This document shows, piece after piece, positions 1,539 through 47,402 of a stretch of DNA of 64,000 nucleotides (position 1 is its first letter; each line of letters starts with the position of its first letter). The notes under the pieces were generated by a model. It saw nothing but the letters and a program-made list of their open reading frames with translations. It made no database searches and was not told where the DNA came from. Location: contig CAZNUS010000002.1 in the NCBI GenBank assembly GCA_964576385.1, forward strand, positions 7,844 through 71,843, written 5' to 3'. The stretch is from an uncultured Methanosarcinales archaeon. GTDB lineage: Archaea > Nanobdellota > Nanobdellia > Woesearchaeales > GW2011-AR9. The translations under genes were made by a program, and so were the position numbers.

Positions 1539-1692
1539 AATTACACCCCCTGTAACTTTATTGGTTAGAATGTATGTGCTATATAAATCTTTGCTTTATT
1601 AACGAAGAAACTTACACAGCAAACAAATCTGTAAAAATATATACATATCTCTATTTATCTTTTTACTCTTTTCTAGACATTATAGTTTCTAC

Positions 1693-1836
1693 GTACGTAT
1701 TAAGTTGTTGGCCAAGAGGTCAATTTTGCTGAACTATCGTGACAGGAACAGATGTGAAAATCTTCGAAATAACTGTTATTTTCAGTCAACATCACTTCAT
1801 ATTTTCACCAAAATGGACGGCCAACTTAATACGTAC
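1693..1836. mobile_element. MITE-like element, copy 1
   Basis: 144 bp. The 14-bp terminal inverted repeat gtacgtattaagtt/aacttaatacgtac is perfect and extends through ttggcc/ggccaa. It is flanked by the 8-bp direct repeat gtttctac at 1685-1692 and 1837-1844. It is about 75% identical to the 17099-17243 copy. Confidence 0.6.
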
Positions 1837-1880
1837 GTTTCTACGAAACTATTATAAAGAAAAACATAGTTTGTACTTTT

Positions 1881-17050: not shown

Positions 17051-17098
17051 TGTGTATAATCCGCATATATACAAAGACTATAATCCTTTAGAAGAATC

Positions 17099-17243
17099 GT
17101 ACGTATTTAGTTAGATGGCCAAGAGGTCAATTCTGCTAAGCTATAGTGACAGGCACAGATGTGAAAATCTTCGGAATCATTACTATTTCTGATAAGAATT
17201 ACTCCAGATTTTCACCAAAATTGACGGCCAACTAAATACGTAC
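17099..17243. mobile_element. MITE-like element, copy 2
   Basis: 145 bp with TIR gtacgtatttagtt/aactaaatacgtac, flanked by the 8-bp direct repeat gaagaatc at 17091-17098 and 17244-17251. The internal core is conserved with copy 1: ggccaagaggtcaatt, gtgacagg and gatgtgaaaatcttcg...attttcaccaaaat. Confidence 0.6.
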
Positions 17244-17264
17244 GAAGAATCTAGTAAATGCATA

Positions 17265-38045: not shown

Positions 38046-38490
38046 ATCATTGCTGGTTTTGTTAATAGCCTTAAGTGGATTATTTTTTGGTTATATCTTA
38101 ACTTTAATTGCTCAGGAAGAATTATCCTTTGGGAAAAAATATTTTATTTTGGTTAAGAGACTTATTTTCTTAATTATTACATTAGTAGTATTAATCTTTT
38201 TTTGGAGAAATTGGATGTATTTTAGTTTATTTTTAATAGTGAGTATGTCCGTGTTTAGTTTACAATTAAATTATGCCTATTGGTGGATGGAATTACTGAA
38301 TTATAGTTTACTTATGGGCAGTTATTTAGTTATGGAATTTATTGTTGATGCTGATATCTCATCAAAGTTATTGATTGCCAGCCTTATATTCTTATATGGA
38401 CTGCCCGCAGGAACATTGATTTTTTCTAAACTTCTTCAAACAAATAGCTCTCATAAATCAAAGAAGAATAAATCACACCGGGAAAAATGA
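38038..38490 (+). CDS. Small polytopic membrane protein (hypothetical)
   Basis: 150 aa, 4 hydrophobic segments, basic tail. Confidence 0.4.
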   Translation: MLKSLLVLLIALSGLFFGYILTLIAQEELSFGKKYFILVKRLIFLIITLVVLIFFWRNWMYFSLFLIVSMSVFSLQLNYAYWWMELLNYSLLMGSYLVMEFIVDADISSKLLIASLIFLYGLPAGTLIFSKLLQTNSSHKSKKNKSHREK

Positions 38491-39146
38491 AGGAGAAAGA
38501 GCATATAAAGCTAGCTAAAAAAGGGCTGGAAGAGACGTTGAAAGAAAAAGTAAGCCCCTTGCTGGAAGAAACTATGGAAAAAAGCTGGGGCATAACAATA
38601 CCTCAGATCGAATCAGACATCACTGATCGCCTTAGAAATTCATCATTAAACATCTATGTTTCTCCGCATCTCAATTTTTTACAAGCAAAGAAAAAATTTA
38701 AAGAAGAATTTCTTAAAAAAAGTTTGCGTATGCATTTAGGAAATATTTCCCAGCTGGCAAAGACGTTGCGTATTGATCGAAGAAGCGTACATAGGGCAAT
38801 TAAGTCGTTAGAGATTAATGTAGAAAAACTCCGGACTAATGACCTTAAAAATTATCGTGAGCAGGAAATAGATCAGACTATCCGCTCCTCATTGGCGCAC
38901 TATGGAGAACTAATACAGCCCCAGCAGATGGAAAAATTATACTCAGAGGTACCGGGATTATCCAAAAATATTGTTAAAATTCTCCCTTTGCAGGAAATTA
39001 CTTGGAAAGAAGCGGAGCGTGATTTTGAGCGGCAGTTTATCTCCCATGTGTTGAAAGAAACCAACAAGGACTTTATTGCATCGGCAACAAAATTAAAAAT
39101 TAGAGTAGAAACATTGTATCGAAAGGTGAAAACGCTAGGATTATAA
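38487..39146 (+). CDS. hypothetical protein with HTH-like segments
   Basis: 219 aa with two Fis-type-HTH-like stretches, ISQLAKTLRIDRRSVHRAIKSL and ASATKLKIRVETLYRKVK. Confidence 0.4.
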   Translation: MKEKEHIKLAKKGLEETLKEKVSPLLEETMEKSWGITIPQIESDITDRLRNSSLNIYVSPHLNFLQAKKKFKEEFLKKSLRMHLGNISQLAKTLRIDRRSVHRAIKSLEINVEKLRTNDLKNYREQEIDQTIRSSLAHYGELIQPQQMEKLYSEVPGLSKNIVKILPLQEITWKEAERDFERQFISHVLKETNKDFIASATKLKIRVETLYRKVKTLGL

Positions 39147-39228: not shown

Positions 39229-39741
39229 ATGGTTAAGAAGAGAAATAATAAAGATAATAACAATAATAATTCTAATAATAATCATCCTAATCATCCTAAT
39301 AATAATGAGAATGGTACTGAGAGCCATAATGCTAATAGTCATATCTGGAAGAGCCATGAAAAGAAGCATCCATTCTTCTCTCAAAAATTAACCCTTGGGC
39401 AAAAAGCAGCAGACGAATTAGCAGAATTTGCAGGAAGCTGGAGATTTATCATTCTCTTTTTATGTTCATTATTCTTTTGGATAGCAGTTAATACCTATTT
39501 TCTCTTAGAAAAACCATTTGATCCCTATCCTTTCATTCTTCTTAATCTGCTGCTCTCTTCTTTAGCAGCTATTCAAGCTCCAATTATCTTAATGGCTCAG
39601 AATCGACAGGCAGAGCGGGATAGGATACAAGCAAAGTATGATTATCAAGTAAATCGTAAAGCAGAACGAGAGATACAGATTGTGCAAAAGGAATTATCTC
39701 ACGTGAAGAAGATAATGTCCAGGCAGCTTCATCAAAAGTAG
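39229..39741 (+). CDS. DUF1003-family membrane protein with poly-Asn N-terminus
   Basis: GSWRFI...FDPYPFILLNLLLSSLAAIQAPIILMAQNRQAERDR matches my recollection of DUF1003. The Asn run is encoded by AAT repeats. Confidence 0.55.
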   Translation: MVKKRNNKDNNNNNSNNNHPNHPNNNENGTESHNANSHIWKSHEKKHPFFSQKLTLGQKAADELAEFAGSWRFIILFLCSLFFWIAVNTYFLLEKPFDPYPFILLNLLLSSLAAIQAPIILMAQNRQAERDRIQAKYDYQVNRKAEREIQIVQKELSHVKKIMSRQLHQK

Positions 39742-39796
39742 GGGAAAATATGATCTCATTGGAGATATATGCTCAAATGTTATAGATTCCTAAAAT

Positions 39797-40043
39797 ATGC
39801 TTTTTCCACTGGTGATTGCCGACAAGCAACTCACGAACGCTAGTGATTTGGTGTTCACCAGTGGTGAACCAACAATATTTACCTCTATGGAAAAAGCATG
39901 GTCAGAAAACCGGGGACTTGCCAGAGCTCGCAAGCGATGGCTCGCTCATTTACCAGCGAAGTGAGCATGCCACCGGTCGTTGCTCATCAGCAACTCACAA
40001 GCGTAAGTGACTTGATATTGACCAGTGGTGGTCGGTTTTCTTT
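39797..40043 (+). ncRNA. Candidate structured ncRNA, identity unassigned (SRP RNA or RNase P RNA are candidates)
   Basis: About 250 nt and locally GC-rich in an AT-rich genome. Long-range pairing atgctttttcca/tggaaaaagcat. Two paralogous hairpin modules: ccactggtga...tcaccagtgg and ccaccggtc...gaccagtgg. Each has an apical caaCTCAC-8nt-GTGAyTTG stem-loop. It ends in a T-run, ttttcttt. The internal 64-aa ORF is probably spurious. Confidence 0.45.
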
Positions 40044-40114
40044 GACAATAATAGCATTTTAGTATATTCTGTATTAAGTAATAGTTTATATAATTTATAA
40101 CATTACCAACAGCT

Positions 40115-40369
40115 ATGATTCCTTTTCAAGAAGATATTAGCGTTCTACTAAAAGTTCCGGTAGATGAAGAATTAGAAGCAAAGTTGCTTTTTGCAAGTAA
40201 AGCAGTTGAAAGATATGCAGGTGTACATAGGTTAGAAGGATACACATCAGGGATGTATAAAGGAGAGGTTAGCATAGTAATTGATGTTGCAAATGGAACA
40301 ATTAATCCCGAAAAACGCTTGCCAGATACTATTCATGGAGTTCAAATCTATTATAAGATAAAGCCGTGA
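40115..40369 (+). CDS. hypothetical small protein
   Basis: 84 aa ORF. Confidence 0.35.
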   Translation: MIPFQEDISVLLKVPVDEELEAKLLFASKAVERYAGVHRLEGYTSGMYKGEVSIVIDVANGTINPEKRLPDTIHGVQIYYKIKP

Positions 40370-41785: not shown

Positions 41786-41984
41786 AATAATAATAATAAT
41801 AATTGATATTGATTATTATATTTTATCCGCAGATGCTATATTTAAATACAGGGGATTTCACCACTCTTTTGACTGGTGTTCCGCCAGCTTTATTCCTAGA
41901 TTGGTCTAATACCCCGCAGCTTGCTCCGGTGGGAGTTTCATTTGAGGTTCTTGGGTCATTTTTATCAGAAATGTTGAGTTATTT

Positions 41985-47221: not shown

Positions 47222-47365
47222 GCCGGGGTAGCAAAGCCTGGCCAAAAACTGTATGTGAAAGCATCAGTTAGGCTCAATGCGCAGGACTTAAGGAGCAGCC
47301 AGCGGATGCTGGTTAAGCAATCCTGTTCCTTAGTGGATTCGGGGGTTCAAATCCCTTCCCCGGCA
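47222..47365 (+). tRNA. tRNA-Leu(UAA) with two introns (D-loop region and 37/38)
   Basis: Acceptor gccgggg/ccccggc, discriminator A. D-arm gca-aagcctggccaaaa...tgc. Anticodon stem cagga/tcctg with loop cuUAAg and a 27-nt intron. Long variable arm ttccttagtggattc. T-arm ggggg-ttcaaat-ccctt. Total 144 nt. Confidence 0.75.
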
Positions 47366-47402
47366 TATTTTATTTAATCCATTGATTGCCATTGTTATTA
47401 TA

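Follow-up and report, generated by a model that had tools for sequence, protein, structure and literature searches.

The intergenic block at positions 39797–40046 of the DNA analysed here (the window, a stretch of 64,000 nt from an AT-rich groundwater member of the Woesearchaeota, DPANN archaea, with a mean GC content of 0.352) is a real, non-random, non-coding and highly structured element. It consists of two domains, each of which is closed by its own long-range helix and contains one copy of a duplicated module. We tentatively read it as a lineage-restricted, two-domain structured small RNA gene of approximately 240 nt, for which the plus strand is slightly favoured; if a transcript of the minus strand is included, a small RNA is about evenly balanced against all other explanations. 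A structured RNA had already been proposed at this position in a sequence-only reading of the window. The anatomy on which that proposal was based, i.e. the GC-rich block, the long-range helix and the paralogous modules, was recovered; the block itself is a candidate RNA.

The block is located in a spacer of 373 nt between a gene for a DUF1003 protein (39229–39741, plus strand) and an open reading frame (ORF) of 84 amino acids (40115–40369, plus strand), which are the flanks given in the sequence-only reading. Its GC content is 0.50–0.51 in comparison to the window mean of 0.35, and it forms the highest 200-nt GC peak of the 64 kb (z 3.2), in agreement with its earlier description as locally GC-rich. 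Among the 36 intergenic regions of at least 100 nt in the window, it shows the highest local GC content; values of at least 0.55 were reached in only three of these regions, the block and two regions with tRNA genes.

A repeat search detected a direct repeat of 61 nt (39806–39866 and 39970–40030; 75% identity, copies 164 nt apart) and three perfect inverted repeats of 12, 10 and 9 bp within the block. The 12-bp repeat is formed by ATGCTTTTTCCA and TGGAAAAAGCAT and represents the long-range helix that had been recognized before. A second closing helix (39904–39912 with 40033–40041, 9 bp, extendable to 39901–39913 with 40032–40046) had escaped notice; because it closes the second half, the block is divided here into domain A (39797–39899) and domain B (39901–40046). 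The direct repeat corresponds to the two modules described previously, M1 with a perfect outer stem of 10 bp and M2 with one of 9 bp including a C.A mismatch. Both modules have the apical motif CAACTCAC-N8-GTGAYTTG, and the pattern AGCAACTCAC-N7-AGTGAYTTG occurs twice in the window, where no occurrence would be expected. The T-run TTTTCTTT, which had been considered an archaeal terminator, is present at 40036–40043, but the same run is the 3' strand of the second helix. The plus strand of the block folds with −93.4 kcal/mol in comparison to −69.8 ± 4.9 kcal/mol for shuffled sequences (z −4.8), and none of 200 shuffles folded equally well. The features of the block are as follows (MFE, minimum free energy; R1, a covariance model built from M1 and M2):

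39776–40104: AT-rich imperfect inverted repeat of 13 nt, AATGTTATAGATT and AATTTATAACATT, bracketing the whole block; possibly a chance occurrence in the AT-rich spacer.
39779–39786, plus strand: weak TATA-like box GTTATAGA, 6/8 matches to TTTAWATA; start predicted near 39809, at the beginning of M1.
39797–39808, plus strand: 5' strand of helix P1A, ATGCTTTTTCCA, with a T5 run; perfect 12-bp inverted repeat, also in the MFE fold.
39806–39864, plus strand: module M1, first copy of the direct repeat; 84.6 bits with R1, folds.
39806–39815 with 39855–39864, plus strand: outer stem of M1, perfect 10-bp inverted repeat.
39816–39819 with 39826–39829, plus strand: hairpin Ha of M1, UUGC/GCAA, from the fold.
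39831–39834 with 39843–39846, plus strand: hairpin Hb of M1, UCAC/GUGA, from the fold.
39835–39842, plus strand: apical loop of M1, GAACGCUA.
39837–39841 and 40000–40004, plus strand: candidate kissing contact between ACGCU in the M1 loop and AGCGU in the M2 loop.
39852–39868: perfect 17-bp palindrome GTTCACCAGTGGTGAAC, which competes with the hairpin at 39863–39883; it was read directly from the sequence, as were the candidate kissing contact and the tandem pairs of hairpin B1.
39863–39883, plus strand: small hairpin GGUGAA/UUUACC with a 9-nt loop in domain A, MFE fold.
39888–39899, plus strand: 3' strand of helix P1A, TGGAAAAAGCAT, pairing with 39797–39808; inverted repeat.
39901–39913, plus strand: 5' strand of helix P1B, GUCAGAAAACCGG; 9-bp inverted repeat, extended in the MFE fold.
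39920–39941, plus strand: hairpin B1, GCCA-GA-GCU-CGCA-AGC-GA-UGGC, MFE fold; tandem G.A/A.G pairs on the plus strand.
39944–39966, plus strand: hairpin B2, GCUCAUUU/AAGUGAGC, with the 7-nt loop ACCAGCG, MFE fold.
39970–40028, plus strand: module M2, second copy of the direct repeat; 83.9 bits with R1, three-way junction in the MFE fold.
39970–39978 with 40020–40028, plus strand: outer stem of M2 with one C.A mismatch.
39979–39984 with 39989–39994, plus strand: hairpin Ha of M2, GUUGCU/AGCAAC.
39995–39998 with 40007–40010, plus strand: hairpin Hb of M2, UCAC/GUGA.
39999–40006, plus strand: apical loop of M2, AAGCGUAA.
40032–40046, plus strand: 3' strand of helix P1B including the T-run TTTTCTTT (40036–40043), a possible archaeal terminator.
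40087–40094, minus strand: TATA-like box ATTATATA, 7/8 matches, sharing the palindromic TATA of the 84-aa gene; start predicted near 40064.

A pattern scan for the exact core of the module in 185,579 species-representative genomes as well as in metagenome and viral contigs revealed one genuine relative in all collections. It is located on JACPND010000007.1, which belongs to another metagenome-assembled genome (MAG) of the Woesearchaeota (44% GC) from the same study and groundwater sample. The core of this foreign copy is identical to that of M1 in 23 of 23 nt, loop included, and R1 detects it with 36.5 bits (E 9e-6). The foreign copy (locus L004, of which 590–680 on the minus strand corresponds to 3810–3930 of L016) is a single, non-coding and non-syntenic module between a gene for an MNT-like nucleotidyltransferase and a gene for an XerC/D-type recombinase; the proteins encoded beside the block are not shared with this locus. 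What has been kept elsewhere is the module core of about 36–60 nt and not the block of 250 nt. Three other matches in genome contigs, one of which (L006) lies inside an ORF of 692 amino acids, were attributed to chance, as each lacks both the loop and the flanks of the real copies. Eight pattern matches in metagenome contigs likewise lacked loop and flanks and were taken as chance; in the viral contigs, the first pattern gave one chance match and two others gave none, and blastn against a phage collection yielded nothing. Within the 64 kb, no further copies were detected by blastn or by R1 with its filters switched off. Between the foreign module and the xerA-like gene, two strong hairpins (TATAGTGGTGG...CCACCACTATA and AAGGAACGAA...TTCGTTCCTT) were observed, the first of which has AGTGGTGGTC in common with the 3' end of M2.

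When each is folded alone, M2 and the foreign copy adopt the same MFE layout: a closing stem, hairpin Ha (GUUGCU-N4-AGCAAC), a directly abutting hairpin Hb (UCAC-N8-GUGA) and, on the 3' side, a single-stranded linker with YUUG at its beginning. The closing stems of both differ in sequence (CCACCGGUC/GACCAGUGG in M2 vs AAAUCUGG/CUGGAUUU in the foreign copy), as do the loops of Ha (CAUC vs GGUA). In M1, Ha is weaker (UUGC-N6-GCAA), and an alternative is the fold described in the sequence-only reading, where Hb is lengthened by CAA/UUG beyond a C.U mismatch. The pairing is preserved between the two paralogues: 16 of the 17 pairs defined by the perfect repeats of M1 are still standard pairs in M2 despite a divergence of 25%, with one change from G-C to C-G, one from A-U to G-U and one broken pair (C.A). 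The 15 substitutions between M1 and M2 are distributed unevenly, 11 in the 25 unpaired and 4 in the 34 paired positions (binomial p ~0.005, uniform rates assumed). These differences are not adenine-specific, and a template/variable repeat pair of a diversity-generating retroelement was rejected for this reason.

Four positions distinguish the apical loops GAACGCUA and AAGCGUAA, and each of the two loops pairs poorly with itself. Due to these differences, ACGCU in the first and AGCGU in the second loop are complementary over 5 Watson-Crick bp; in a simulation, the chance probability of this post hoc observation was ~0.014, both for random loops and for paralogues with four substitutions. Such a complementarity would be expected if both domains docked on each other within one RNA.

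In the proposed RNA, the two domains would be closed by P1A (12 bp) and P1B (9 + 3 bp) and would each contain one module of approximately 60 nt. Each module would be built from a closing stem, which encloses Ha ([G]UUGC[U]-loop-[A]GCAA[C]) and, abutting it, Hb (UCAC-N8-GUGA), and from a linker on the 3' side with YUUG at its beginning. The invariant Ha/Hb core (AGCAACUCAC...AGUGAYUUG) may be the element that a protein or another nucleic acid recognizes, and the apical loops may kiss via ACGCU and AGCGU and thereby dock the domains on each other. A role of the block in a ribonucleoprotein or as a scaffold is conceivable, provided that it is transcribed. In favour of an RNA are, besides the significant folding, the layout common to M2 and the foreign copy, the retained pairing between the paralogues, the complementary loops and the fact that tRNA genes account for the other two intergenic regions with a local GC content of at least 0.55. 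The block ends in the T-run mentioned above and is devoid of runs of at least four T in its interior, which would suit a transcript of the plus strand; the tandem G.A pairs in hairpin B1 and the few G-U pairs also favour this strand.

Promoters were assessed with a rule calibrated on the genes of the host, TTTAWATA at −30. About 14 of the 52 genes in the window possess a box with 7–8 of 8 matches that begins 30–33 nt before the ATG, from which it was concluded that the mRNAs are mostly leaderless. Both tRNA loci have a box of the 8-of-8 type about 30 nt before the start, and the start lies 4 nt upstream of the mature 5' end; for tRNA-Leu(UAA), this is the box TTTTATAA about 30 nt upstream of the start.

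Several observations weigh against a small RNA. In comparison to the boxes of the tRNA and many protein-coding genes with 7–8 of 8 matches, the plus-strand promoter is weak. Box GTTATAGA (6/8) would direct a start that leaves out the 5' strand of P1A, and a second box, GATATATG with a predicted start near 39795, has 5/8 matches. The T5 run in the 5' strand of P1A also lies on the plus strand. The minus strand of the block folds equally well (z −5.1), so that there is no strand asymmetry. Only 2 of the 72 pairs of a composite model are of the G-U type, and A and U are equally frequent among its unpaired positions. Near-absence of G-U pairs and symmetric strands are the look of DNA palindromes. 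The usable covariation is confined to three module copies. A shuffle control for the retention of pairing between two sequences was uninformative (229/500), and the closing stem of the foreign copy alone could be due to chance (estimated p ~0.15). Finally, the distribution is narrow, as the exact core occurs in just one other species representative and in no metagenome or viral contig. The closest DUF1003 homologues, which are 60–70% identical, have a spacer of ~100 nt at the corresponding position and no element. If a core conserved in 23 of 23 nt belonged to an old functional RNA, many Woesearchaeota should possess it. Since both MAGs with the core stem from the same sample, horizontal spread is suggested rather than an old conserved RNA, and the presence in two MAGs together with the foreign-looking GC content fits such a spread. 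What spreads could be an RNA gene that travels with a mobile element, or else a palindromic element of a selfish nature.

The latter possibility leads to an alternative that we consider unlikely on the whole, though it deserves serious attention: the block might be a foreign or mobile palindromic DNA element or its remnant, comparable to miniature inverted-repeat transposable elements (MITEs), palindrome-associated transposable elements (PATEs) or an integration scar. Its hairpins would then matter at the level of DNA or single-stranded DNA or not at all, and any transcript would be incidental. The GC content of 0.50 in a genome of 0.35, the almost pure Watson-Crick pairing and the equal scores of both strands would be explained in this way. 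A perfect inverted repeat bounds each half, like terminal inverted repeats. The only other copy lies at a different locus of a distantly related MAG from the same sample, where its neighbours are toxin-antitoxin-like genes and a recombinase gene, and the element is missing at the equivalent position in relatives of the DUF1003 gene. A non-autonomous element would be expected to have terminal inverted repeats with a target-site duplication, or end hairpins of the IS200/IS605 type together with a cognate TnpA; in the block, inverted repeats bound the halves as well as the whole, and the two similar hairpins are in direct orientation. Like MITEs and PATEs, the block is short, non-coding, palindromic and bounded by inverted repeats, with a foreign-looking composition and a patchy phyletic distribution. 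Unlike them, it is present as a single copy in the 64 kb, even with the filters of the model switched off, and matched once in the other MAG. The two halves have different terminal repeats, and no target-site duplication is visible at the flanking 13-nt repeat AATGTTATAGATT/AATTTATAACATT. No integrase, transposase, reverse transcriptase or orc1/cdc6 gene is encoded in the 64-kb window, which is in favour of an RNA gene, and the pairing between the paralogues was kept by selection.

Perfect inverted 12-mers within 150 nt are rare and were found at six loci of the window, two of them (8438 and 52521) inside ORFs; in total, 17 k-mer hits were obtained with the real sequence vs 0–7 per block-shuffled sequence. 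A further point for a mobile element is that the window harbours another repeated family bounded by inverted repeats. Its two members, E1 (1691–1838, plus strand) and E2 (17097–17245, plus strand), are intergenic elements of ~150 nt that are unrelated to the block, 83% identical to each other and without a family in Rfam. They have a perfect terminal inverted repeat of 16–17 bp (ACGTACGTATTAAGTTG...CAACTTAATACGTACGT), and their flanks may carry 4-nt duplications (TTCT, AGAA). RNAalifold predicted 45 pairs for them, 4 of which show changes on both sides. E1 and E2 could be MITE-like elements or non-coding RNAs (ncRNAs) with a processing stem. They are not GC-rich, unlike the block and the tRNA regions, and this speaks for the interpretation of the block as an RNA gene.

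The region of the block also coincides with a gap in the assembly GCA_016185745.1, as might be expected for a mobile element, but the other end of this gap lies inside an ordinary gene. In this assembly, 39944–40195, i.e. the second half of the block and the start of the 84-aa ORF, are missing; contig 114 stops at 39943 and contig 117 at ~40196. Ends of Logan unitigs and of NCBI contigs were found in or beside both copies of the module. These assembly breaks were given no weight because, in the host, the other end of the gap and the other end of the unitig lie in ordinary genes, and the argument for mobility was dropped.

A different role at the DNA level, which is improbable, would be that of a site cluster for a tyrosine recombinase (dif-like) or for another dimeric DNA-binding protein. 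The core AGCAACTCACG-AACGCT-AGTGAYTTGGT can be read as two imperfect inverted arms of 11 bp around a 6-bp spacer, or as arms around a spacer of 8 bp, with the outer CCASTGG palindromes as accessory sites. This palindrome occurs three times in the 64 kb (39806, 39858 and 40022), always within the block. The dif site is defined by imperfect inverted repeats of 11 nt around a 6-nt spacer (PMC8371274), and this layout is found in AGCAACTCACG/AACGCT/AGTGATTTGGT, where the arms match at 8 of 11 positions in each of M1 and M2 and at 7 of 11 in the foreign copy. Archaeal dif sites reportedly have inverted repeats on both sides, and two copies are present at one locus in S. solfataricus (PMC2958812). 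M1 and the foreign copy possess identical arms and spacers, and the foreign site lies 216 nt upstream of the gene for the XerC/D-type recombinase. This recombinase looks like a housekeeping XerA, because homologues with 58–74% identity are present throughout the Woesearchaeota.

A dif site, on the other hand, should occur once per chromosome, at the terminus of replication, and be widely kept in relatives, and the core was found in just one other species representative; the motif is missing upstream of five other XerA loci of Woesearchaeota. Direct copies that are 164 bp apart and have unlike spacers do not correspond to the behaviour of dif. The ATAA/TTAT inner positions, which are conserved in bacterial and archaeal dif sites, are missing from the core, and there is no switch of the GC skew at the site beyond the effect of gene orientation within the 64-kb window. 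A protein-binding site would also need neither the GC-richness nor the nested long-range helices. In summary, the block resembles Xer/dif sites (PMC2958812, PMC8371274) in its 11 + 6 + 11 imperfect palindrome, its flanking inverted repeats and the position of the foreign copy beside an xerA-like gene, and differs from them in that it is not kept in relatives, is duplicated with unlike spacers, is unlinked to xerA at five loci and is embedded in long-range helices. In XerA-like genes of different Woesearchaeota genomes, a conserved box AAAGTTCG(T/C)NTAA was observed between TATA box and start codon (L016, 3971–4000; in L019, L022 and L023 just upstream of the ATG of the recombinase).

A replication origin was considered as well and rejected. 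Archaeal origins are characterized by several TTCCAGTGGAAAC-type boxes around an AT-rich unwinding element beside orc1/cdc6. In the block, TTCCACTGG and TTCACCAGTGGTGAA match the mini-ORB sequence TTCCAGTGGAACT (PMC1904270) only in part, the 64 kb encode no orc1/cdc6, and the block is GC-rich.

If the small RNA reading is followed, the strand has to be considered. An RNA of the minus strand that comprises only domain B (from ~40064 to ~39890) is quite improbable. Its transcription would begin at the bidirectional TATA box shared with the 84-aa gene and end at the T4 and T5 runs of the junction between the domains A and B. Box ATTATATA (7/8) is located at the proper distance, T4 and T5 runs follow directly after domain B on this strand, and the folding of the minus strand is as significant as stated above (z −5.1). 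Moreover, on the antisense strand of L016 the box TTTTATAA precedes the module by 30 nt. Such a transcript would, however, replace the tandem G.A pairs of B1 by tandem U.C/C.U and would form two pairs fewer in the closing stem of the foreign copy, and it leaves domain A and the complementarity of the loops unexplained.

Known RNA families were searched in Rfam. In the whole window, nothing was detected at gathering thresholds, and in the 431-nt region only noise from microRNA and small nucleolar RNA families was obtained at E ≤ 10 with lax filters; the same was true for the region of the foreign copy. The earlier statement that the block could not be matched to signal recognition particle (SRP) or RNase P RNA was thus upheld even at E ≤ 10. 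The sequence-only reading had listed a lack of Rfam hits, of covariation support and of a transcript as arguments against a structured RNA; of the first two, only the lack of an Rfam hit was observed, and it has low weight. The negative results with Rfam and ARAGORN are soft because both tools miss the multi-intron tRNA genes of the window itself. One of these is tRNA-Leu(UAA) at ~47222–47366 (plus strand), which has the acceptor stem GCCGGGG/CCCCGGC, the T-arm GGGGGTTCAAATCCCTT and two introns, one in the region of the D-loop and one after position 37. The locus at ~49811–49953 (plus strand) looks like tRNA-Met/Ile(CAU) with an apparent intron in the T-loop (CCGGGTTCAAA|...|ATCCCGG, then TGTTGCC-A), and a tRNA with an intron of 43 nt is located at 49958–50087 (plus strand). 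All three were missed by ARAGORN in default mode and by Rfam even at E ≤ 1, and only the last one was recovered in the intron mode of ARAGORN.

It is nevertheless highly improbable that the block is a known RNA (SRP, RNase P, 5S, tRNA, H/ACA or C/D RNA) that is masked by introns or insertions. Apart from the oversights of the tools, this explanation is based on look-alikes seen by eye: GGAAAAAGCAUGGUCAGAAAAC is similar to the helix-8 region of human 7SL RNA, AACUCA..GAA..GUGA to loop C of 5S rRNA, and CAGAAAACCGG to conserved region (CR) V of RNase P RNA. These look-alikes occur in the wrong structural context; 'GGAA', for example, is part of a perfect 12-bp helix and not of a tetraloop. The tentative matches of the sequence-only reading, GGUGAACC, CAGAAAACCGGGG and GGUCAG, had to be abandoned, as they are located in helices or linkers unlike the structures of these families. 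In addition, the duplicated module has no counterpart in any of them.

The families were also compared one by one. SRP RNA is characterized by helix 8 with a GNAR tetraloop, conserved symmetric and asymmetric loops and an Alu domain. No Rfam hit to archaeal SRP (7S) RNA was obtained, and GGAA...AGCA..GGUCA lies within the P1A helix and a linker and not in a hairpin. RNase P RNA possesses CR-I GAGGAAAGUCC and CR-V (ACAGAAnnCGG), which form P4, as well as the helices of the C-domain. The block gave no hit to this family either, and CAGAAAACCGG remains a look-alike without CR-I or a P4 partner. Hallmarks of 5S rRNA (RF00001) are a three-way junction of ~120 nt, loop C (CCGAAC..GAAGU.AAGC) and loop E. 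A helix I and a two-arm layout are seen in domain A, yet RF00001 was not hit at E ≤ 10, the likeness to loop C requires an insertion of 6 nt, and the second arm comprises 21 nt and lacks loop E. With regard to tRNAs, ARAGORN detected none in the window in default mode and just the one at 49958–50087 in intron mode; by eye, the block is devoid of an acceptor stem, of a T-loop of the GTTCRAATC type and of a D-arm.

H/ACA RNAs carry ACA or ANA directly 3' of the lower stem and a kink-turn (K-turn) or K-loop with tandem sheared G.A pairs for L7Ae. The block is similar to archaeal multi-hairpin H/ACA small RNAs (sRNAs) in its two tandem units of ~60 nt, each with a lower stem of 9–10 bp, an internal loop and an upper stem-loop. 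It differs from them because no ACA/ANA box adjoins the stems, which are followed by UGAACCAACA in M1 and UGGUCGGUUUUC in M2 (ACA occurs no closer than 8 nt and 17 nt from the lower stems), and because K-turns and K-loops are lacking: of the apical loops GAACGCUA and AAGCGUAA, that of M2 has no 5' GA, and a 3-nt bulge with GA/AG is absent. Furthermore, H/ACA families were not hit in Rfam, and M2 and the foreign copy prefer a three-way junction and not a pseudouridylation pocket. C/D sRNAs have the boxes C (RUGAUGA) and D (CUGA), their C'/D' copies and a guide spacing of 12 nt. Only GUGAU-like fragments were found, CUGA is missing where it is required, and just the central GUGAY is common to M1, M2 and the foreign copy. 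A hammerhead or another ribozyme was dismissed, since the CUGGUGA of M1 is not kept in M2 and no ribozyme of Rfam was hit. A mimic of the L11-binding/GTPase-associated (L11/GAC) rRNA domain was discarded, too; the block shares only an 8-mer with it, at a different structural position.

The block is non-coding. A small protein gene or pseudogene with a repeated peptide (PLVIADKQLTNASDLVFTSG/PPVVAHQQLTSVSDLILTSG) is very unlikely, even if three ORFs on the plus strand (39797–39964, 39816–40010 and 39898–40062), which cover three frames, and one on the minus strand overlap the block. An ORF of 55 amino acids was called by one gene caller (P0241), and, by eye, third codon positions account for 8 of the 15 differences between the modules (binomial p ~0.09). 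The two peptide repeats, however, are in different reading frames. A phmmer search with the 55-aa ORF against 1.84 billion representative proteins retrieved only the ORF itself and a low-complexity artefact from satellite repeats, a chimera of the four ORFs yielded no homologue even at E ≤ 10, and there was no match in Pfam. The core of the foreign copy has no start codon, and a stop is located two codons upstream. A coding role is thus very unlikely also for the GC-rich ORF at 39816–40010, which the sequence-only reading had named as alternative explanation.

The 64 kb encode an ordinary housekeeping set with argininosuccinate synthase and lyase, FtsZ, P-type ATPases, superoxide dismutase, peroxiredoxin, diphthamide synthase and a DHH phosphoesterase. 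Genes identical to the DUF1003 gene beside the block are present on JACPNB010000114.1 (GCA_016185745.1) and on a Logan contig from SRR12113424. No family could be assigned to the downstream 84-aa protein, and exact look-up of the 55-aa and 84-aa ORFs returned no record. The fold of the 84-aa protein was considered as a clue and set aside; a single-sequence AlphaFold model (predicted confidence, pLDDT, 76) showed only generic ferredoxin-like matches (E ≥ 0.01) and was uninformative. Two genes upstream of the block, a protein of 219 amino acids (38487–39146, plus strand) contains a bacterial Fis-type HTH_8 domain, known from the C-termini of NtrC and NorR, and is encoded in an archaeal operon with a DHH phosphoesterase and a small membrane protein. 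The region 41850–41965 has the fourth-highest intergenic GC content (0.50) and, on the plus strand, is preceded by a TTTAAATA box and followed by a T5 run; it showed neither a folding signal (z −0.1) nor a match in Rfam.

Among known systems, the Hgc RNAs of Methanocaldococcus, which were reportedly found by Klein, Misulovin and Eddy in 2002 by screening for GC content, are similar to the block as intergenic GC spikes in an AT-rich archaeal genome with strong predicted structure and no coding potential. The other GC spikes of the window are tRNA genes, which is in line with GC islands of the Hgc type. Unlike the Hgc RNAs, the block is only predicted, has no sequence or model match to any family of Rfam and belongs to a host that is not a known thermophile. 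Tandem glycine riboswitches and kissing-loop complexes share with it the two homologous domains with a P1 each and a potential 5-bp contact between loops. The block differs from tandem riboswitches by the lack of a known ligand, of a family match and of a position in a 5' untranslated region; the latter was concluded because the gene that follows is preceded by a separate TATA box at −30 and is apparently leaderless. No description of a comparable RNA of DPANN archaea was found in the literature, and the block is best filed as an orphan GC-rich structured ncRNA candidate of an AT-rich archaeal genome.

A more far-reaching and rather unlikely interpretation would see in the block the first representative of a new class of structured RNAs in DPANN archaea, with two three-way-junction modules that have a long closing helix each and are docked via their complementary apical loops, and with the invariant core as recognition platform, whose module is perhaps exchanged horizontally among co-resident Woesearchaeota. 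As an orphan with one partial relative, it has limited general importance at present, and a palindromic mobile remnant or a recombinase site would be of local interest only. To our knowledge, almost no ncRNAs other than rRNA and tRNA have been catalogued for DPANN archaea. Their RNA genes are often so unusual, for example due to multiple introns or split genes, that standard tools miss them, and the window itself illustrates this. If the block is indeed a small RNA gene, it would be among the first lineage-specific structured RNAs of DPANN archaea, with its module present in two unrelated Woesearchaeota of one aquifer, and this would be a hint of an exchange of RNA genes within communities of episymbionts.

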